A stretch of 64,000 bases of DNA from a bacterium (GTDB lineage: Bacteria; Planctomycetota; Planctomycetia; Planctomycetales; Planctomycetaceae): the NCBI GenBank assembly GCA_016124895.1, contig WGMU01000100.1:1-64000 (forward strand), in the 5' to 3' direction. Of this stretch, positions 1-43,205 are shown one piece after another. The notes under the pieces were generated by a model. It saw only the letters and a list, made by a program, of their open reading frames with translations, was not told the origin of the DNA and ran no database searches. A program made the position numbers and the translations under genes. Each line of letters starts with the position of its first letter. Positions within the stretch are counted from its first letter, which is position 1.

Positions 1-122
1 AATTGTTTAACGCCCAGCCGCAGGCGCCGGCTCCCCGACCGCCCTCGTCACAGGTAGCCGGCGCCTGCGGCTGGGCGTTAAACGAGTCTCACGATACGGC
101 AACCTGCACTCGAAAATTGCCC

Positions 123-1076
123 TCAATCCGCGACCACGCAGATCGCGGTTACCCGATCGTGAACGATGACCGGCCAGGCGAGTCCCCACGACAGCACACC
201 CGTCGACAGCGCACCTCCCAGGACCGGATCGTCGGACTCGACGTCCGTCACGACGGCTGGCTTTCTGGTATCGAGGACGCGGCCGATGAGTCCCTCTCCC
301 GGAACGCTGCGAAGCTGACTGCTGCGACCGGCGAGGTCCGCCAGGCTCGGAGCAACGACTTCGGACAGCTCGAACACGCCCTCAGTCTCGGACGGGACCC
401 AGATCTGCAGAGCCCGCGCGATCGGCGACGCGTTCGACGAGAGCATCACAAAGACCGCGTTGAGATGATCGGCGCCACTGACAACAGGAACTGCCAGGCC
501 GGAATCGAGTCCGTCGGCGACGGCTCCTGATGCCCGTAGAAAGTGACTTGATTCGCCCAGACGATCGATGAGTTGCGGCGTCAGCGTCTGCCACACTTCG
601 CCAGGCAGGCCAGCTCCGTATGGAAACCTCAGGTACTGGCTCAGCCGTCGGAAGCGATCAAGGTCAGAGTAGTAGCCGGTGCCCAGTTCCAGTTCGTGCC
701 GAGTTGTATTCGGGAGCCAGGACTCAAAAGCCCCGCGTGCCAGCTCGTCGGCATCGAACAGAAAAATCATAACTGCGGTCAGTTCGTCGCCGTCAAAGAC
801 CGGCAGGCCAAAGCCAGCGCCCAGATTTGATTCCGTTGCCGCACCGCTGCGCACAAAATCAGCCGAACTGAGATCGTCGAACAGAACCGGCACGCGCGCT
901 TCACTGACCCAGCCCGGCAGTCCGGTGCCAGAGGCCAGACGCAACGACTGCGTGGCCACGCCAAACGCGTCAACGTCGGCATACATCGCCGAGTCAACGA
1001 CGAGCGTACCATCAGCGGACGGCGTCCAGACTTCGACAACTTTCAACAGGCTTGAGGCGATAATTGTGTCTCCCAT
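123..1076 (-). CDS. Tandem GAF-domain protein (two GAF-like halves, no recognisable output domain); last gene of the nrt-like operon. The track ORF's Arg-rich N-terminal extension is probably not translated, so the start was moved to the internal ATG 1074-1076.
   Basis: ORF 123..1271 minus. From MGDTIIASSLLKVVEVW onward it has GAF-like alpha/beta character and is collinear with, and 56 bp downstream of, the ABC ATPase gene. ATG start codon confirmed on the minus strand at 1074-1076. Confidence 0.5.
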   Translation of the reverse strand: MGDTIIASSLLKVVEVWTPSADGTLVVDSAMYADVDAFGVATQSLRLASGTGLPGWVSEARVPVLFDDLSSADFVRSGAATESNLGAGFGLPVFDGDELTAVMIFLFDADELARGAFESWLPNTTRHELELGTGYYSDLDRFRRLSQYLRFPYGAGLPGEVWQTLTPQLIDRLGESSHFLRASGAVADGLDSGLAVPVVSGADHLNAVFVMLSSNASPIARALQIWVPSETEGVFELSEVVAPSLADLAGRSSQLRSVPGEGLIGRVLDTRKPAVVTDVESDDPVLGGALSTGVLSWGLAWPVIVHDRVTAICVVAD

Positions 1077-1132
1077 CGTTCCACTCGTTCTCTGCGGAAT
1101 GTTTTCGCATTGGGCATTGTTCGCAAGGACAT

Positions 1133-2083
1133 TCAGTGTGCAGCGTCCGCAGTGACCAGTTCTTCTTCGACCTCGGCTGCTGCGTCGGTTGTGACTGGTT
1201 CGTGAGCAGTCACGGCCACCTCTGGTTCCGCGGGCCGGCGATCCTGACCTTCGAGGAAGCTCAGCAGGCAACCTCGCAGGTCGTAATAGTCGGGATGTTC
1301 GAGGACAGCGTGCCGCTCGCGGGGCCGTTCAAACGGAAGCTGCAGCACCTGCCCGACGCGTGCTCCTGGCCCGTTGGTCATCATGCAGACGCGATCCGAC
1401 ATGTAGATCGCTTCATCGACGTCGTGCGTGATGACCATCGTGGTGATCTTCTCACGGTTCAGGATGTCGAGGATGACGTCCTGCAGTTCCATCCGCGTCA
1501 GCGAATCCAGCCGACCGAACGGCTCGTCCAGCAGCAGCATCCGCGGCTTGAGCGCAATCGCCCGGGCGATGCCGACGCGCTGCTGCATCCCGCCGGAGAG
1601 TTCCTTCGGGTAACGGTGCATGGCGTCCGCGAGACCGACGACGCTGAGGTAGTACTCGCAGAGTTGTTTACGATCCTGTTTCGATGCTTGCGGATAAACG
1701 CGGTCGACGCCGATCTTCACGTTCTGAAACGCGGTCATCCACGGCAGCAGACACGGAGCCTGAAACACGACCGCTCGATCCGGACCAGGTCCGACGATCT
1801 CACGGCCTCCGACCACAATTCCGCCCGAAGAAATATCGTTGAGCCCGGCGACCATCGTCAGGACAGTCGACTTGCCGCAACCCGAGTGTCCGATGACGCT
1901 GACGACCTCACCCTTACTGACAATCAGGTTGAAGCCCTTCACGACAGCAATGTCTTCGCCATACGGATTCGGGTACGCCTTCGTCACTTCGTAAAACTCG
2001 ACAAACCGACGCTCTGCGAGTGCCATCCCATCAGTCTTGGCCTCGGCTGCCGGTGTCAGGTTTTCAGTGATCGGTTGAATCAT
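1133..2083 (-). CDS. ABC transporter ATP-binding protein, nitrate/sulfonate/bicarbonate (NrtD/CmpD/TauB-like) type
   Basis: Walker [13 protein letters not shown] signature LSGGMQQR, Walker [13 protein letters not shown]-loop ITHD. 316 aa. Position 4 in an A-B-C-D gene order. Confidence 0.85.
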
Positions 2084-2120
2084 CGGTTTCCCTTGTGATC
2101 CGACTGTCGTCGATCAAAAG

Positions 2121-2294
2121 CTGTAGTCCGGTTTCTCCGAAACTGGATCAACCGCTGCGGGGAGGTTGATTGCCGAAGGATGCCGTAACGCAGCGTGCGG
2201 CCTCGACCCTGTCATTTGTCCTGGGGTTTGTCTTCGTTGAGCATGGTTTGTGATTTCGGTGATTTGTCTGCGTTGTTCCAGGTTTTGGAAAAAC
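2121..2294. repeat. Intra-operon spacer element with terminal inverted hairpin motifs. Left: CTGTAGTCCGGTTTCTCCGAAACTGG (2121-2146). Right: CCAGGTTTTGGAAAAACCTGGCTACGG (2268-2294).
   Basis: Each terminal motif is itself a hairpin: CCGGTTTC/GAAACTGG and CCAGGTTTT/AAAACCTGG. The right end, reverse-complemented, resembles the left end (GTAG + stem + TCC loop + stem). The same architecture recurs at 4873-5036. Confidence 0.6.
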
Positions 2295-2320
2295 CTGGCT
2301 ACGGTTGGCCGTGACCGGCA

Positions 2321-3205
2321 TCACGACGCCATTCGGCCTGACGGTGTTGTCAGGTCAATCGGCTGGATATCCGGAAGCTCGATTGCATCGGCGACACGCA
2401 GTTCCTTCGCCTCGCGGTTGATGTCGAGCATGTATTCCGTGACCTCGTTCCGCAGATGCTTGAAGTCGGGGTTGAAGTTCAGCGTCGTCCGATCTCGAGG
2501 TCGTTCGAGCGTCACTTCGAAGCTCTGTCCGAGCGTCGCATTCGGTCCCGGCGTCAGTGGTACGATGCGATCAGCCATGAGCACGGCTTCGTCAACGTCG
2601 TTCGTGATCATCACGACCGTGCGGCGATCCTCTTCCCAGATGCGAGTGATTTCGTCCTGCAACTGTGATCGGGTCAGAGCATCCAGCGCGCTCAGCGGTT
2701 CATCGAGCAGCAGCACTTCCGGCTGCATTGACAGCGTCCGGGCCAGCGACAGCCGCTGCCGCATTCCGCCCGAGAGTTCATGTGGCTTTTTCCACTCGGC
2801 ACCGGTCAGGTTGACCATGTCGATGTACCGCTGGATGTACTGCTTCCGCTCGGCGGTTTTCATCTCGGGGAAGACCTGCTTCACCGCCAGCTCGATATTG
2901 CCGTACACACTGAGCCACGGCAGCAGCGAGTAATTCTGAAACATGATGCCGCGGTCCGGCCCCGGCTCGGTCTGTACCTTGCCGTGAATGCGGACCTCGC
3001 CGGAATCCGGCAGCAGCAGCCCGGCCAGCAGTGCGATCAGCGTGCTCTTGCCACTGCCTGAAAAGCCAATGACAGCTACAAATTCATTTTCTTCAACTTC
3101 CAGACAGACGTCTGTCAGAACTTCCGTGCGATCGCCGTCCGGACCAAATCCGAGGGACACATTGTCGAGTTCAATGAAGGCCACAGTGGGCTCCTTCCTG
3201 TTCAA
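2321..3205 (-). CDS. ABC transporter ATP-binding protein (NrtC/CmpC-like ATPase, no C-terminal NrtA-like extension)
   Basis: Walker [10 protein letters not shown], signature LSGGMRQR, Walker [13 protein letters not shown]-loop ITND. 294 aa. Confidence 0.85.
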
Positions 3206-3224
3206 TCAAGTTCTCGATTACGTG

Positions 3225-4829
3225 CTAAATCGCGGCTGCGGCGTCGTCGAAGCTCACCAATCGCTGGAACACAATCATGATGCGATCGAGCACCAGGCCG
3301 ATCAGGCCGACGACAAACACAACGACCATCATCTTGGCGAACGAATCGGATGCTCCGTTGTTGAACTGATCCCAGACGAACTTGCCGATCCCTTCTGAAG
3401 AACTCAGCAGTTCGGCTGCGATGAGCACCATCCAGCCAACGCCGAGCGAAATCCGCAGGCCGGCGAAGATCAGAGGCAGCGACGACGGGATGACGATCTT
3501 GAACAGCCGGTCTTTGAAGCCAAGCCGCAGGACTCGCGCGACGTTCAGGTGATCCTTGTCGATCGACGCAACGCCCAGTGCGGTGTTCGTCATTGTGGCC
3601 CACAGAGAGCACAGCGCGACGGTAATCGCCGACGCAATGAACGCCGGATTGATCTTCATCCAGCCAAGCAGCGGCAGGTTTGCCAGAAAATCGATCAGCC
3701 AGTGCTTGTCCGGGTCGGGAATAAAGCCGCCGACGATGATCAGCGCGATCGGCAGCCAGACGATCGGCGAGACCGGCTTAAACAGTGCGATGAACGGCGT
3801 CATGGCCGCCATGAATGTCTTGCTCAGTCCGCACAGAACGCCGATCGGAATGGCGATTGCCGAGCCGATCAGAAAACCGGCAAACACGCACGCCAGGCTG
3901 CGGTAGATCTGCATTGGCAGCGTCCAGGGCTTCGCGTACGTCGATTCCGACGTCTTCTGAATCCGCGCTTCCTGCCGCACGATCCGCTGTGCCAGCATGA
4001 ATGCGGCGTCGCCTTCCGCCGACAGAAACGTGACCTGATCAGCGCGGAGTTGAGCCATCTGCTCGTCGAGCTTGAGCGTCCGGTTGCCGTGTCCGAGCTG
4101 CTCGGACAGCTTGCCGAGATACTGTCGTTCTTCCGCAATCCGCGTCTGAGCCTTCAGTGCGTTGACCAGTTGCGGGAACTTCTCGGCACGAATGGCCGTT
4201 TCTTCGGCTTTGAGTTCCTTCAATTGCTCGCGTTCGGCTTCCGTCTTTGCCGCATGATCGCGCACCCGCTGCAGGTAAGCTTCCCTGGCAGCTCGATCGG
4301 CCGACGCCAGCAGCCCAGCATCCCGCTTCAGGGCCGCCTCACGCTCGGTCTGCGCGGCAGAGAATTCGGCGTCGAGCTTCTCGTACTGCGTGAGAATCGG
4401 ACCGACGAGTTCCTCAACACTGGTCGTACGAGCGGCGTTAGCTTCTTTGACGTGCTGGTTGGCAAGTGTCTCCAGTGGTTCGAGCTGACTCAGCCGTTTC
4501 TCGACGATGGCCAGCTTCTGTTCGCGGGTCTTTCCACTGAGCCCGTAAGCGTCTTCCTTGTCAGCCTCACGATCATGGAACCGCCAGATACTGCTCGCCG
4601 CATCCCAGACGACCAGTGGCGTTGGGACCTCCCCGGACTTCGTCTTGTGTCGCGGAGCAATCGCACCCCACAGGCCGACGAAAACCGCAAAGGCGATCAG
4701 CGGGACGACGATGAACCGTCCGATTTCCTGAAGCTGCTTCTTCGGCTCCTCACCGTAGCACAGCCGGACGACCGGAGTGAGAAAGGTCAGACCGGCAACA
4801 TCGATCGCTTTAATGAGTTTGTATTTCAT
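3225..4829 (-). CDS. ABC permease of the NrtB/CmpB/TauC family carrying a ~250-residue charged coiled-coil insertion between an N-terminal TM helix and the canonical permease core
   Basis: 534 aa. The C-terminal ~260 aa (from [35 protein letters not shown]) is a typical binding-protein-dependent permease core with the EAA-like region [12 protein letters not shown]. Residues ~70-310 are E/K/R/A/Q-rich heptad-like sequence ([43 protein letters not shown]...). Separated from the next gene by only 19 bp. Confidence 0.8.
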
Positions 4830-4872
4830 GGTTTGGTTTGAGTTACCTAAAGCCGTTTTTTGAGCCCGGACA

Positions 4873-5036
4873 GTTGTAGGCCAGTTTCTCTGAAACTGGC
4901 ACCCACACAGGAATCGCCTGCTGAGGCGTACTTGTCATCAAGTTCAAATGGCTCGTCTGGGTTCTGCGTGGAAAGCGAGGCCGGGAATTTCAATTGCCTC
5001 TGCGCATGAGCAGGTTTTGGAAAAACCTGCCTACAG
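4873..5036. repeat. Second copy of the intra-operon spacer element. Left: TTGTAGGCCAGTTTCTCTGAAACTGG (4873-4898). Right: GCAGGTTTTGGAAAAACCTGCCTACAG (5010-5036).
   Basis: Same two terminal hairpin motifs as 2121-2294, in the same relative orientation and spacing (~110-120 bp between them). Sits between the nrtA-like stop (5048) and the permease start (4829). Confidence 0.6.
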
Positions 5037-5047
5037 TTAGCCTCCCC

Positions 5048-6553
<1,506 letters not shown>

Positions 6554-6900
6554 GGCAACAGACTGCTCCGAAATTATTCGATGGAAACTCCACTCAGGTC
6601 GTCCTGCGCTGACGGACCAGAGTGGTTCGGAGCGAAAAGCAAGCAATGTGCCGACGTGGTGATTCACGTAGCAAAACCGAAGTGCAGTCGGCAGACCACG
6701 TGCGTTTTCCCTGCTGGACTGTGGGCAACCACGTGGAACATCGGTCGCAGCGAATCTATCCGTGCTGCGAATGCAGGCAGCGAAGAGCCAATCGGCAGGC
6801 AGGCCGATTGAAAGCGACTCTTCGCGCAGAGAAACGCGGACCGGATCACGGAGCAGTCGCCGAAAATGGCTTACGTGTTCGGATTCGTAAGTCGACGTGA

Positions 6901-6984
6901 CGGAGGTCGGGAGTCTTTTTCAGTCAGACCACCTTCGCAATGGTTTCCGCTCGCTCCGAAAAAGACTCCCGACCCTTGCCGGCC
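6901..6984. repeat. MITE-like element, copy A: 15-bp perfect terminal inverted repeats GTCGGGAGTCTTTTT ... AAAAAGACTCCCGAC (6906-6920 / 6959-6973)
   Basis: Direct reading of the sequence. ~85% identical over ~84 bp to a second copy at 9763-9846. Lies in the intergenic region between the globin stop and the nrtA-like upstream region. Confidence 0.7.
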
Positions 6985-7026
6985 TTCGGTCTTCCCTCTT
7001 GCTGGTCTGTAAAAGAGGAACGCGAA

Positions 7027-7449
7027 TCAGGCCGCAGCGAGTTCTGCGGCTGCTTCTCTCATCGTCGTCGATAGAATCGTGTAGACAGTCACCCAGGCAT
7101 CTTTGACTTCAGGAGTAAACGCGTCTCCGAGCCCCTGCTCCAGCGTCCACAGCAAGGCTGCGCCGACGGTCTGGTACTGCGAGTCCTCGACGTTGTAGGC
7201 GACGTGTCGCTGTCCGAGGGCTTTGACCGCGGGCACAATTTCGCCCACATCGGTCAGGCCGTTGACGGCGAAGGCAAGCGTCTGCATCAGCTTCTTTTTC
7301 TGCTCGGCCATTTCGTCGGGAAAGAGCGCCCGCAGCGACGGATCGAGTTCAAACAGGCGGCCATAAAACAGATCGGCAGCCTGATCGGCGATGGGAGCAA
7401 CAGCGGCCCACGATGCCTGAACGAGAGAGACTTGCGTCGGAGTGACCAT
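7027..7449 (-). CDS. Single-domain bacterial haemoglobin (globin domain resembling the Vitreoscilla Hb / flavohaemoglobin N-terminal domain)
   Basis: 140 aa. LVQASWAAVAPIADQAADLFYGRLFELDPSLRALF matches the globin A-B-C helix signature (..W..V......FY.RLFE.DP.L..LF). The proximal His context QRHVAYNV is consistent with the F-helix. Confidence 0.75.
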   Translation of the reverse strand: MVTPTQVSLVQASWAAVAPIADQAADLFYGRLFELDPSLRALFPDEMAEQKKKLMQTLAFAVNGLTDVGEIVPAVKALGQRHVAYNVEDSQYQTVGAALLWTLEQGLGDAFTPEVKDAWVTVYTILSTTMREAAAELAAA

Positions 7450-7554
7450 GAGAGAGTTCCTGTGACTAAAGGTTCCGGTTGACGAGGTTGGGTTCGTTGT
7501 TGAGCCTGCCCCACGGCTTTCGGCGCTGAGCGGGCTGAGCTGCTCAGGATCCGG

Positions 7555-8118
7555 TTACGAGTCCGACGAGCGGATCAGTCGCAGGTCGCACTCACGAATG
7601 ACGTACTTCCATTCCTCCGTCCGCCGCAGTTCACCAACCAACTGGTCAAAGGCCGCGGCATCGGAGGGTGCAAATTCAAACCATGTCAGAAAATCGAACG
7701 CTCCGCCGAGATCCCGCGAATGGTGCAGCCGTCGCGCCACCGCCGGCAGATAGTTGAGTCCCGTCGCAATGTGTCGCGATTGGGTTTCCAGAATGGCGCG
7801 GCGTTCGTCCTGCGTAAGGCCCCACCACTCCGGCGATTTCGACAGAGCAATGAAGGCGGCACACGACGCTTCGGCTCGGCCGAGCGGCGGCTGCACAGCC
7901 ATCAGAGCTGCCTTTTCACTGCGTGTCACGTATCGCTCGTTGCTGACGACTCCTCTGAGGCACCACGTTACAGCGGCCAGCTCCGGCACAAACGGTTGAG
8001 CAGAGGACACGATGTCCAGACGGTCGACCGCCGGCAGTCCGTCGCCTGCAACGTCCGTCTTTGTCGTGACCTTCCACGGTCCGGCCGAGCCACCCACAAA
8101 CGTGAAGAATCGATCCAT
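7555..8118 (-). CDS. Short (lineage II, Nitrobacter NwCld-like) chlorite dismutase family haem protein
   Basis: 187 aa. Near-collinear motif agreement with short Clds: LRGVVSNERYVTRSEKAAL, WWGLTQDERRAILE, the proximal-His context SRHIATGLNYLPAVARRLHHSRDLGGAFDFLTWFEFAP, and TEEWKYVIRECDLRL. The Arg of AVARRLHH aligns with the distal catalytic Arg. No signal peptide. Confidence 0.75.
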   Translation of the reverse strand: MDRFFTFVGGSAGPWKVTTKTDVAGDGLPAVDRLDIVSSAQPFVPELAAVTWCLRGVVSNERYVTRSEKAALMAVQPPLGRAEASCAAFIALSKSPEWWGLTQDERRAILETQSRHIATGLNYLPAVARRLHHSRDLGGAFDFLTWFEFAPSDAAAFDQLVGELRRTEEWKYVIRECDLRLIRSSDS

Positions 8119-8219: not shown

Positions 8220-8846
8220 TCAATCGAGCGGAATGCGGACGACGACGCCTCCCATGACGTCACCTGCCTTGAATTCGGGATAGCTCACTTCGCGGTTGGC
8301 GTGACCGTTATGGCAGGACCAGCAGGCTTCGGCGACGGCCTTGTCGGCATAGACCGCGGTGAAGTAATTCGCTCCGGCGATCTCTTCCGTCTTGTAGAAG
8401 TTCTCATCCGGATGCTCGGCGATATATTCGAGGCCTTCGATCTCGACGCCTTCCGCTTTGTTCTGTGGATTCAATGGCCACTTCGATTTGAGGGCGTACG
8501 TGAAACCGGCTTCGGGGTTGTCGTTGACCAGTTCGGCTCCCATGCGAAACATCTGAGCGGGCAACGGAATCGTGTGCTCTTCGTCCTGCCAGTATTCACT
8601 GGGTTTGACCGGGGCTTCCTGCTTCTTAAGACGTGTCACGACCTGTTTCGCGTAGACCGTTCGGTCGGCCATCATCACCGCGTGAACGGCGTCAGCGAAT
8701 TTCTGCGGCGTGATGCCGGTTGGCGGAGTCGTCTGAGCAACGGCGTCAGACGAGCTGCCGCCACCGCATCCGGTGGCTCCAGCCAGCATCACCGCGCTGC
8801 CACTCAGCAGAACGGCAGACAGGAATGTGCGCGTGTGTGGTTTCAT
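8220..8846 (-). CDS. Lipoprotein monohaem c-type cytochrome with the haem motif near the C-terminus, possibly cytochrome c'/P460-like
   Basis: Lipobox LAGATGC. A single CXXCH (CWSCH) lies at ~residue 175 of 208. The C-terminal placement of the motif resembles the cytochrome c' / c'-beta / P460 families; that assignment is inference only. Confidence 0.55.
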   Translation of the reverse strand: MKPHTRTFLSAVLLSGSAVMLAGATGCGGGSSSDAVAQTTPPTGITPQKFADAVHAVMMADRTVYAKQVVTRLKKQEAPVKPSEYWQDEEHTIPLPAQMFRMGAELVNDNPEAGFTYALKSKWPLNPQNKAEGVEIEGLEYIAEHPDENFYKTEEIAGANYFTAVYADKAVAEACWSCHNGHANREVSYPEFKAGDVMGGVVVRIPLD

Positions 8847-38933: not shown

Positions 38934-39087
38934 CTCAGCGTCACAGGAGTGTGCCACTGGCTTTGCCTGTGCTCCAAAGAATTCGAGCACTGGCGGAGCC
39001 AGTGGCACACGGATGCACGGCAAAACGTCGTCGCCTCGAACTGCAGGACAATCGGGACAAGACGAAGACTGACCACACGAGGACACA

Positions 39088-42833: not shown

Positions 42834-43205
42834 TGTTGTTCCTTCGTGATCAGACAGTTGTGGAGTTATTTCGTCGATCGCTGAGACATCGGCATCGCAA
42901 AATAATGTTAAGCGTTCGTCGATCAGATTCGCTACGACACGACACAGCGCATCGGCTGGCCCCACTCAAACTGACGTTGGGTGGCCGGGGCTGGACTGAG
43001 CCTGCAAAGGAAGCCCCGGAACCTGAAAGCACGGAATACAGAGACCGGGACTTCGCTCGTACCTCGCTCCAGCCCCGGCCACCCTGCGCAACAGATTCAT
43101 GATCACCGGCAATAGCGGCCACGACAGCCCTGCTCGAACTGGCGGGGCAGACAGAAATCGTCAAAGCTGCCGCATGATTAATGACTCTTTCCGGGAGGGG
43201 CTCCA

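Follow-up and report, generated by a model that had tools for sequence, protein, structure and literature searches.

GTAG-tagged REP doublets as the probable identity of paired hairpins in two spacers of a planctomycete nrt-like operon

The two long intercistronic spacers of an nrt-like operon from a member of the Planctomycetaceae very probably each hold a head-to-head heterodimer of GTAG-tagged REPs, a non-autonomous element of the REPIN/BIME kind. We conclude that the paired hairpins go back to ordinary insertion of mobile repeats and were not built to control the operon; mobility of the doublets is suggested by analogy with characterized REP systems. For annotation, the spacers are better labelled as REP doublets than searched for operon-specific regulators.

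The operon was studied within a window of 64 kb, by which we mean the whole stretch of DNA that was analysed. As the sequence-only reading had recognized, it encodes an NrtA-like protein, an NrtB-like protein and two NrtC/D ATPases, all on the minus strand (Table 1), and the junctions other than the nrtA-nrtB (A-B) and nrtC-nrtD (C-D) spacers measure 19 and 56 bp.

Table 1. The nrt-like operon, its four repeat units and the sequence between them (positions in the window)
Feature	Position	Strand	Remarks
Host operon	1133..6553	-	nrtA-like binding protein, nrtB-like permease, two nrtC/D-like ATPases
nrtA-like binding protein gene	5048-6553	-	
nrtB-like permease gene	3225-4829	-	
nrtC/D-like ATPase genes	2321-3205 and 1133-2083	-	
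Left-type REP unit, C-D spacer	2123..2147	+	GTAG 2123-2126; stem TCCGGTTTC 2127-2135; loop TCC; stem GAAACTGGA 2139-2147
C-D doublet interior	2148..2277	.	130 bp; no likeness to A-B interior
CGCAG tail, C-D right unit	2268-2272		
Right-type REP unit, C-D spacer	2278..2302	-	GTAGCCAGGTTTTTCCAAAACCTGG as - strand reading
Left-type REP unit, A-B spacer	4876..4900	+	GTAGGCCAGTTTCTCTGAAACTGGC; 9-bp stem perfect; loop TCT
A-B doublet interior	4901..5009	.	109 bp; no likeness to C-D interior
GCGCAG tail, A-B right unit	5000-5005		
Right-type REP unit, A-B spacer	5010..5034	-	GTAGGCAGGTTTTTCCAAAACCTGC as - strand reading

Each long spacer contains two 25-nt units, placed head-to-head with the GTAG outermost, and in a unit GTAG is followed by a 9-bp stem that a TCY loop closes (GTAG, stem and 3-nt loop are present in 4/4). 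A motif pair in the same orientation had already been noticed in both spacers, and all four motifs were recovered at those places, the left ones at 2123-2146 and 4876-4899 on the plus strand and the right ones, which form GTAG-hairpins on the minus strand, at 2279-2302 and 5011-5034; the dimensions needed correction. The stem is 9 bp long rather than 8 bp, the 19-mer CAGGTTTTGGAAAAACCTG taken for a palindrome is a stem of 8-9 bp closed by a 3-nt loop, and the elements, put at ~165-175 bp, are doublets of 180 bp (C-D) and 159 bp (A-B). Two unit types are distinguished, a CCGGTTTC-type and a CAGGTTTT-type. The closing pair covaries: left units close with T-A or G-C, right units with C-G or G-C. 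One G.T wobble interrupts the stem of the left C-D unit, for which the predicted RNA hairpin energies are -9.9 kcal/mol (GTAG strand) and -6.2 kcal/mol (mRNA strand); the left A-B unit reaches -11.9 / -12.7 kcal/mol. The right units begin 18 nt past the nrtC stop codon and 13 nt past the nrtA stop codon, and the left A-B unit precedes the nrtB ATG by 46 nt. A CT dinucleotide adjoins the GTAG in two of the four. Searching the 64 kb with up to 3 mismatches returned these four units only, all intercistronic and within one operon; 100 dinucleotide shuffles gave 0 matches to either motif, and a scan for structure only (GTAG plus perfect hairpin) recovered essentially the same four.

The doublet interiors are unrelated to one another, as first described, apart from a CGCAG tail ~5 nt inside each right unit. 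Whole-doublet RNA folds gave z = -0.98 (C-D) and -3.14 (A-B). A structured interior RNA was considered and is unsupported, because terminal hairpins or arm-to-arm pairing account for most of the fold signal and a three-way consensus fold of the C-D element contains just one compensatory pair in the interior. Rfam, run over positions 1-8000 in E-value mode, gave no family match, its sole result being a chance snoRNA match inside nrtC, and a promoter/terminator scan found no promoter- or terminator-like site in either spacer. No T-run follows the window hairpins, so they lack the combination of GC-rich hairpin and U-tract that marks an intrinsic terminator.

Related units are widespread. A degenerate GTAG-hairpin pattern matched more than 101 loci in at least 23 assemblies from at least three phyla (Planctomycetota, Electryoneota and Hydrogenedentota), among them at least 23 loci in a Thermoguttaceae MAG, at least 13 in Ca. 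Hatepunaea, at least 11 in Planctomycetota bin120 and at least 6 in a Hydrogenedentota MAG. These per-MAG counts (23, 13, 11, 8 and so on) are lower bounds; for the source organism, the 64-kb window gives a count of four units. Pairing was assessed solely at positions where the search pattern imposed no complementarity: the closing pair is Watson-Crick in 102/113 matches (40.8 expected under independence), and the other stem pairs are paired in 109-110 of 113 (68-86 expected). The stems thus covary, as they do in hundreds of related units outside the window. The GTAG was also kept in partner units from a relaxed scan made without the original pattern. Stop-to-stop ORFs of 200 aa or more enclose only 21.5% of the units, compared with 77% of random positions. 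Most units stand in convergent doublets: a first scan yielded 55 such pairs, and loci included afterwards brought the number to 57. Doublet length is genome-specific (50, 51-54, 67-79, 111-119 or 120-204 bp), and in bin120 doublets of 122-204 bp join a left type and a right type into a heterodimer as in the window; units in other genomes also stand singly and at spacings from 0 to ~150 bp. No flanking direct repeat indicative of target-site duplication was present in 54/57 doublets, non-orthologous copies showed no interior similarity, and the other 106 repeat-bearing loci gave no NrtA or NrtB match.

In four genomes (L086, L094, L095 and L099) doublets lie on both sides of a Y1/HUH RAYT gene. 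The ORFs of L099 and L094 score above the threshold of Pfam Y1_Tnp, those of L099 and L095 pass the cutoff of NCBIfam NF047646 ('REP-associated tyrosine transposase'), and the HUH motif and catalytic Tyr are conserved in the RAYT ORFs. Y1/RAYT genes are the sole transposase genes found beside family members. The RAYTs linked to the family share only ~26% identity, while the REP core hardly differs between the phyla, of which there are at least three. What is documented here, in uncultured members of the Planctomycetota, Electryoneota and Hydrogenedentota, is a GTAG-REP family accompanied by RAYTs, with a hairpin core common to these phyla.

The closest published counterpart is the GTAG REP superfamily, in which head-to-head dimers, heterodimers and REPs flanking RAYT genes have been described (Di Nocera et al., 2013, PMC3733652) and to which Planctomycetes already contribute the GTAG-20/21 families of R. 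baltica. Both have an unpaired 5' GTAG directly abutting a stem of 6-13 bp closed by a loop of 2-3 nt, sub-families defined by complementary changes in the stem, a predominance of head-to-head dimers with the GTAG outside (including heterodimers with different stems), a position downstream of coding regions and between same-direction genes, and RAYT genes flanked by REP doublets. The stem/loop CCGGTTTC-TCC-GAAACCGG and its variants had no counterpart among the 24 published families in a comparison confined to text, the supplement of PMC3733652 included. Spacers usually span 20-100 bp in the superfamily, whereas here they span 109-130 bp and in bin120 up to ~150 bp; head-to-head spacers are usually conserved there and variable here.

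REPINs (Bertels and Rainey, 2011, PMC3116915; RAYT groups 2/3) likewise are inverted, non-autonomous REP doublets without target-site duplications, associated with a doublet-flanked, single-copy Y1/HUH gene. In most other genomes doublet length is tightly genome-specific, as in REPINs, and the doublets of 50, 51-54, 67-79 and 111-119 bp conform to the strict definition of conserved spacer length and sequence. In the lineage of the window, in contrast, the interior is conserved in neither length nor sequence and the doublet is unlike a single replicating unit. REPIN populations are also usually described as lineage-specific, unlike the near-identical core found here. In the group 3 REPtron of Stenotrophomonas maltophilia (Corneloup et al., 2021, PMC8266576), GTAG, hairpin and loop are recognized, cleavage takes place at CT, and each REP is a perfect stem of 8 bp closed by 3 nt of loop. 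Here 9 bp and 3 nt follow the GTAG, and the loop, whose identity matters there, is conserved (TCC/TCT); stem and loop sequences are unrelated and the host phylum differs.

Binding and cleavage of single-stranded units by RAYTs have analogues in the literature (PMC8266576, PMC3479197), and the E. coli, Stenotrophomonas and Marinomonas systems suggest how the doublets might have spread. In single-stranded DNA each unit would fold into its own hairpin; a RAYT encoded elsewhere in the genome would recognize the 5' GTAG together with the hairpin and its loop, cut at a nearby CT-type dinucleotide, and then copy the element, or move it, to an intergenic site. Doublets that had entered the operon would be transcribed as part of the polycistronic mRNA, where each could form either one long arm-to-arm stem or a pair of hairpins, with energies of about -10 to -13 kcal/mol (-6 for the wobble unit). 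These structures could shield nrtA and nrtABC, the segments upstream of them, against 3' exonucleases, or they could form processing sites. The C-D insert parts two cistrons whose counterparts in relatives are overlapping or at most 50 bp apart. On this model a secondary mRNA-hairpin effect is plausible; it would be a by-product or a later co-option and not the reason for the existence of the sequence. The BIME/REP element between malE and malF of E. coli, which similarly places a REP pair between the binding-protein and permease genes of an ABC-importer operon, reportedly stabilizes the upstream mRNA segment. Family and organism are unrelated in that case, the role here is putative, and the ATPase-ATPase doublet has no mal counterpart.

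Comparison with orthologous operons argues that the elements are insertions and not a conserved regulator of the operon. Synteny extends to the relatives L102-L106, L114 and L116, which have the genes in this order. The C-D junction is REP-free and 0-50 bp long in L103, L104, L105, L106, L114 and L116, and orthologous operons at 77-80% permease identity are without the units. The C-D doublet is common to the window and relatives at 91-92%. In the window and in L102 it sits in a junction of 236-237 bp; L107 and L109, whose spacer sequences are identical, have it too. A second GTAG family (GTAGGCCGGA...), absent from the window, occurs, likewise as a doublet, at A-B in L102 and L109 and at B-C in L118. 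The REP-free relatives have a native covarying 25-bp hairpin in the A-B spacer; it is missing from the window, where the A-B doublet occupies its place. With the operon available REP-free, with the first family and with the second, at three junctions, these genomes form a natural series for studying REP effects on the expression of ABC-transporter subunits.

The right unit of the C-D doublet is 25/25 identical in the orthologous copies of L102 and L107/L109 and, together with ~16 adjoining nt, is invariant in three lineages; a metagenome scan for the exact right-type unit found 7 loci only, of which two (L107 and L109) are further orthologues of the nrt operon. The left unit of L109 has decayed (GTAG to GTCG) in an otherwise intact operon. 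Interior identity to the window is 77% in L102 and 64% in L109, and third codon positions are 57-66% identical; the interior thus drifts at near the third-codon-position rate while the better-kept unit stays identical. A claim of constraint on the interior, for which the L102 value might have spoken, was dropped because the L109 identity is close to that of third codon positions. Part of the interior resembles the native leader sequence of related operons, and the two C-D units may for this reason have arrived separately. A leader-like motif, CTCCAGAAC, is not enriched in the window (23 matches, 16.7 expected).

Several observations sit less easily with insertion of REP doublets. All four units of the 64 kb fall in the same operon, and no RAYT gene was detected in the window by tblastn, phmmer or a 4-sequence HMM. 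The interiors are long and unconserved between copies, a departure from whole-doublet replication as in REPINs and from the spacer conservation that PMC3733652 gives as a rule of thumb for head-to-head dimers, and the leader-like stretch at C-D leaves room for separate arrival of the two units. We consider it possible, if rather unlikely, that the doublets have repeatedly been recruited as interchangeable intercistronic RNA hairpin modules, with at least four acquisitions from two REP families at A-B, B-C and C-D and with replacement of the native hairpin at A-B; the family may also be an ancient cross-phylum REP lineage whose core GTTTC-TCC-GAAAC stayed fixed while its RAYTs diverged.

That the hairpins were built for the nrt operon, as the operator of a dimeric regulator or as dedicated signals for RNA processing or stability by which the stoichiometry of the subunits is fixed, strikes us as quite improbable. 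The position of both doublets in the only two long gaps of the operon, in the same orientation, invites such a reading, as do the invariant right unit with its flank, set against the third codon positions, and the possible substitution for the native A-B hairpin; for REPs elsewhere, effects on the stability of mRNA and on the termination of translation have been reported (PMC3733652, PMC12306157). However, the units are dispersed in unrelated contexts, close relatives carry different REP families at the same junctions, the spacers gave neither an Rfam match nor promoter- or terminator-like sites, and the operon of L109 is intact despite its decayed left unit. The sequence-only reading had offered this possibility alongside a transposon-like one and had named absence of the motif from orthologous operons as evidence against it; that absence is what the relatives at 77-80% permease identity show. 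Because of this distribution a regulatory origin appears refuted. The label 'REP-like', which it had also proposed, was the right one; the dedicated operator or operon-specific structure finds no support.

The doublets are very unlikely to be classical MITEs, that is, two deletion derivatives of a DDE-type IS with ~26-bp TIRs that inserted with a target-site duplication. Inverted ends, a length of 159-180 bp and presence/absence polymorphism at C-D agree with such an origin, and AGTT flanks the A-B copy on both sides. Yet the C-D copy has no flanking direct repeat, like nearly all other doublets, the unrelated interiors of non-orthologous copies point to no common parent IS, each supposed TIR is itself a GTAG-hairpin unit that elsewhere is single or variably spaced, and the neighbouring transposase genes are exclusively Y1/RAYT. 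What stands of the MITE proposal is that these are inserted non-autonomous repeats with inverted ends; the ends are of the type on which RAYT transposases act. Chance resemblance or a low-complexity artefact, to which nothing beyond the shortness of the motif lends itself, has a negligible probability given the empty shuffles and the hundreds of related units with covarying stems in other genomes.

Each of the two long spacers of the minus-strand nrt-like operon, nrtC|nrtD (C|D) and nrtA|nrtB (A|B), contains a pair of hairpin units. In every unit GTAG abuts a hairpin with a 9-bp stem and a 3-nt loop (TCC or TCT); the two units of a spacer face each other with GTAG outermost, giving doublets of 180 bp (C|D) and 159 bp (A|B). 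Neither unit motif has a further match in the 64-kb window with up to three mismatches allowed, and none was found in 100 shuffled sequences. The four units located bear out the sequence-only reading, which had claimed a hairpin pair in the same arrangement in both long spacers, as well as interiors without obvious similarity: those of 130 bp (C|D) and 109 bp (A|B) are unrelated in sequence. The stem-closing pair varies between the two window copies yet remains complementary (T-A versus G-C; C-G versus G-C). The NrtB-like permease has an N-terminal extension of ∼ 300–370 residues, which every listed homologue retains in full, and only residues 378–518 are matched by the nitrate-permease model.

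Coordinates of the nrt-like operon, its doublets and hairpins in the operons of relatives
Feature	Sequence	Position	Strand	Composition
NrtA-like substrate-binding protein	window	5048-6553	-	
NrtB-like permease	window	3225-4829	-	long N-terminal extension
NrtC/D-type ATPase	window	2321-3205	-	
NrtC/D-type ATPase	window	1133-2083	-	
C|D spacer	window	2084-2320		two 25-nt units
C|D left-type unit	window	2123-2147	+	
C|D right-type unit	window	2278-2302	-	
A|B spacer	window	4830-5047		two 25-nt units
A|B left-type unit	window	4876-4900	+	
A|B right-type unit	window	5010-5034	-	
Second GTAG doublet family	L102	5863-5961		
Second GTAG doublet family	L109	nrtA|nrtB spacer		
Second GTAG doublet family	L118	∼ 2205-2290		
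Native A|B hairpin	L103	5842-5930		
Native A|B hairpin	L104	3770-3850		
Native A|B hairpin	L106	5876-5956		
Native A|B hairpin	L114	2258-2338		

Since GTAG plus a short palindrome is a hallmark by which repetitive extragenic palindromes (REPs) are recognised, membership of a REP family was tested by scanning 185,579 species-representative genomes with one degenerate pattern spanning both unit types. This matched at least 101 loci in at least 23 assemblies, where ∼ 2 matches are expected by chance (our estimate from information content); the top contributor, a single MAG, held at least 23 loci. Among the matches listed, the majority of assemblies are Planctomycetota (Thermoguttaceae, Lacipirellula, Pirellulales, Planctomycetaceae and Kuenenia), the other hosts being Ca. 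Hatepunaea and Ca. Tariuqbacter (both Electryoneota), one Hydrogenedentota MAG and unclassified bacteria. The covariation analysis proposed for further copies was run on these matches and found pairing far above independence. The closing pair, whose complementarity the pattern did not impose, is Watson-Crick in 102 of the 113 matches listed versus 40.8 expected, and three inner pairs, at positions likewise free of imposed complementarity, in 109–110 of 113 versus 68–86. The hairpin of this family is therefore under selection. A relaxed structural scan of the fetched loci gave at least 184 units and at least 55 convergent doublets (a + unit, then a - unit), or at least 57 including later loci. 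Doublet length is specific to the genome among the matches listed: 50 bp in the Thermoguttaceae MAG, 51–54 bp in Lacipirellula and Pirellulales, 67–79 bp in Hatepunaea and two unclassified MAGs, 111–119 bp in Hydrogenedentota and 120–204 bp in Planctomycetota bin120. The bin120 heterodimer is that of the window, a CCGGTTTC-type with a CAGGTTTT-type unit, and its doublets bear a CGNCAG tail ∼ 5 nt inside each unit. Long ORFs (stop-to-stop, at least 200 aa) are avoided, with 21.5% of units lying within them compared with 77% of random positions. A flanking direct repeat was absent in 54 of the 57 doublets examined.

In four loci from four different genomes (L099, L094, L086 and L095), units adjoin an ORF that keeps the HUH motif and the catalytic tyrosine. 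Scores of the L099 and L094 ORFs exceed the Pfam Y1_Tnp threshold. The curated NCBIfam model NF047646, 'REP-associated tyrosine transposase' (RAYT), matches L099 and L095 above its cutoff and L094 below it. Doublets of the window's family (family 1) stand on both sides of the transposase gene in all four loci, the 'REPtron' arrangement known for RAYTs (PMC3733652, PMC8266576). No RAYT-type gene is present in the 64-kb window. The L094 and L086 RAYTs (Planctomycetota MAGs, proteins 68% identical) contain a complete in-frame REP unit within their coding sequence (2962–2986 and 305–329 respectively), inside an insertion missing from the other two RAYTs.

The window elements are thus very probably REP doublets of the RAYT-associated GTAG family, inserted at operon junctions. 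They fit the GTAG-tagged REP superfamily, with its head-to-head heterodimers, sites between same-direction genes, REP-flanked RAYT genes and known Planctomycetes hosts (PMC3733652), and are similar to 'group 3' REPs, in which a perfect 8-bp stem carries a 3-nt loop whose identity is important (PMC8266576); here the TCC/TCT loop is conserved across phyla. Two features are atypical. The interiors in the window's lineage are long, variable and non-homologous, so that the doublet there does not behave like a single replicating unit of the REPIN type (an inverted REP doublet as mobile unit), and the hairpin core is almost unchanged over at least three phyla despite an identity of only ∼ 26% among the associated RAYTs. 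Neither places the elements outside the known kind. Our data establish anatomy, family, RAYT association in other genomes and insertion polymorphism. By analogy with studied systems (PMC8266576, PMC3479197, PMC3116915), a window unit would fold into a hairpin on single-stranded DNA, a RAYT would recognize hairpin, loop and GTAG and cut at a nearby CT dinucleotide, and the element would spread without duplicating its target.

The possibility that the structures are a regulatory element specific to the operon was examined in relatives. Syntenic contigs were reached via permease homologues, and a metagenome scan for the right-type unit added L107 and L109, which do not differ in spacer sequence. 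In L103–L106, L114 and L116 (permease 77–80% identical) the two genes at C|D overlap or lie 19 or 50 bp apart; no family-1 unit occurs anywhere in L103–L106 and no GTAG hairpin in the examined junction spacers of L114 and L116. L102 and L107/L109 (permease 91–92%) have the window's doublet at C|D. At A|B, L102 and L109 carry a doublet belonging to another GTAG family at the site of the window's doublet; its unit is GTAG-GCCGGA, a 12–22 nt, itself partly palindromic loop (16–22 nt in L102 and L109), and TCCGGC. This second family, absent from the window, occupies nrtB|nrtC in L118 (permease 82%). Such varied occupancy implies at least four colonisations of the operon's junctions, involving two REP families. 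An operon-specific element is made unlikely both by the unoccupied orthologous junctions and by the exchange of family at A|B, and these comparisons show that the doublets do not belong to the operon's conserved make-up. The REP-free relatives have a native ∼ 25-bp hairpin with five compensatory pairs in the A|B spacer, which probably folds on the mRNA between the cistrons; it is missing in the window and L102/L109, where REP doublets stand instead.

At C|D, the window, L102 and L109 share the right-type unit at 25/25 positions. The left-type unit of L102 matches the window at 24/25, and that of L109 is decayed (GTAG to GTCG and one stem change). Pairwise identity of the interior is 77%, 64% and 73%, near that of third codon positions in the flanking genes (57–66%), and its consensus fold shows almost no compensatory change; the interior therefore drifts at a roughly neutral rate. 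The alignments show that the units, the right one at least, are maintained by selection or homogenisation. The interior may represent spacer DNA, either native or captured. Within it, L102 has CCAGAACGACTGACAGGATCGAAACC (∼ 8650–8680), which closely matches the leader immediately 5′ of the nrtB start codon on the same contig (CCAGAACTGACAATCGAAACC|ATG, ∼ 5975–6000) and likewise the L116 nrtD leader (6757–6806); elsewhere in the window this motif shows no enrichment. The leader-like part of the interior hints at separate arrival of the two units.

Consequences at the RNA level are plausible. The doublets lie on a polycistronic mRNA, with predicted folding energies of ∼ -10 to -13 kcal/mol per unit (∼ -6 for the unit mismatched on the mRNA strand), and the C|D insert parts two cistrons that overlap or almost do so in relatives. 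The A|B doublet starts 13 nt past the nrtA stop codon, between binding-protein and permease genes, the position of the malE-malF REPs in the classic case. That distance is inside the range at which E. coli REPs are reported to stall ribosomes during termination (summary in PMC12306157).

Other repeats occur in the window and in relatives. At the edge of the window, immediately downstream from the GAF-domain gene following nrtD, is a long inverted repeat (5–83; 31-nt arms, 97% complementary; GTTTAACGCCCAGCCGCAGGCGCCGGCT... / ...AGCCGGCGCCTGCGGCTGGGCGTTAAAC). Upstream of the nrtA leader, 6905–6974 holds a perfect 17-nt inverted repeat (GGTCGGGAGTCTTTTTC / GAAAAAGACTCCCGACC, 36 nt apart), in a region that aligns poorly with, or is an indel against, the 91% relative L102. 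A 29-nt inverted repeat (86% complementary, 4-nt gap; GTGTGCCACTGGCTTTGCC... / ...GGAGCCAGTGGCACAC) is found at 38949–39010. The palindrome type GGGTGGCCGGG...CCCGGCCACCC occurs far from the operon at 42979–43084 and, in L116 (5781–5895) and L118 (2097–2319), between nrtB and nrtC, which suggests a further dispersed repeat family of the clade.
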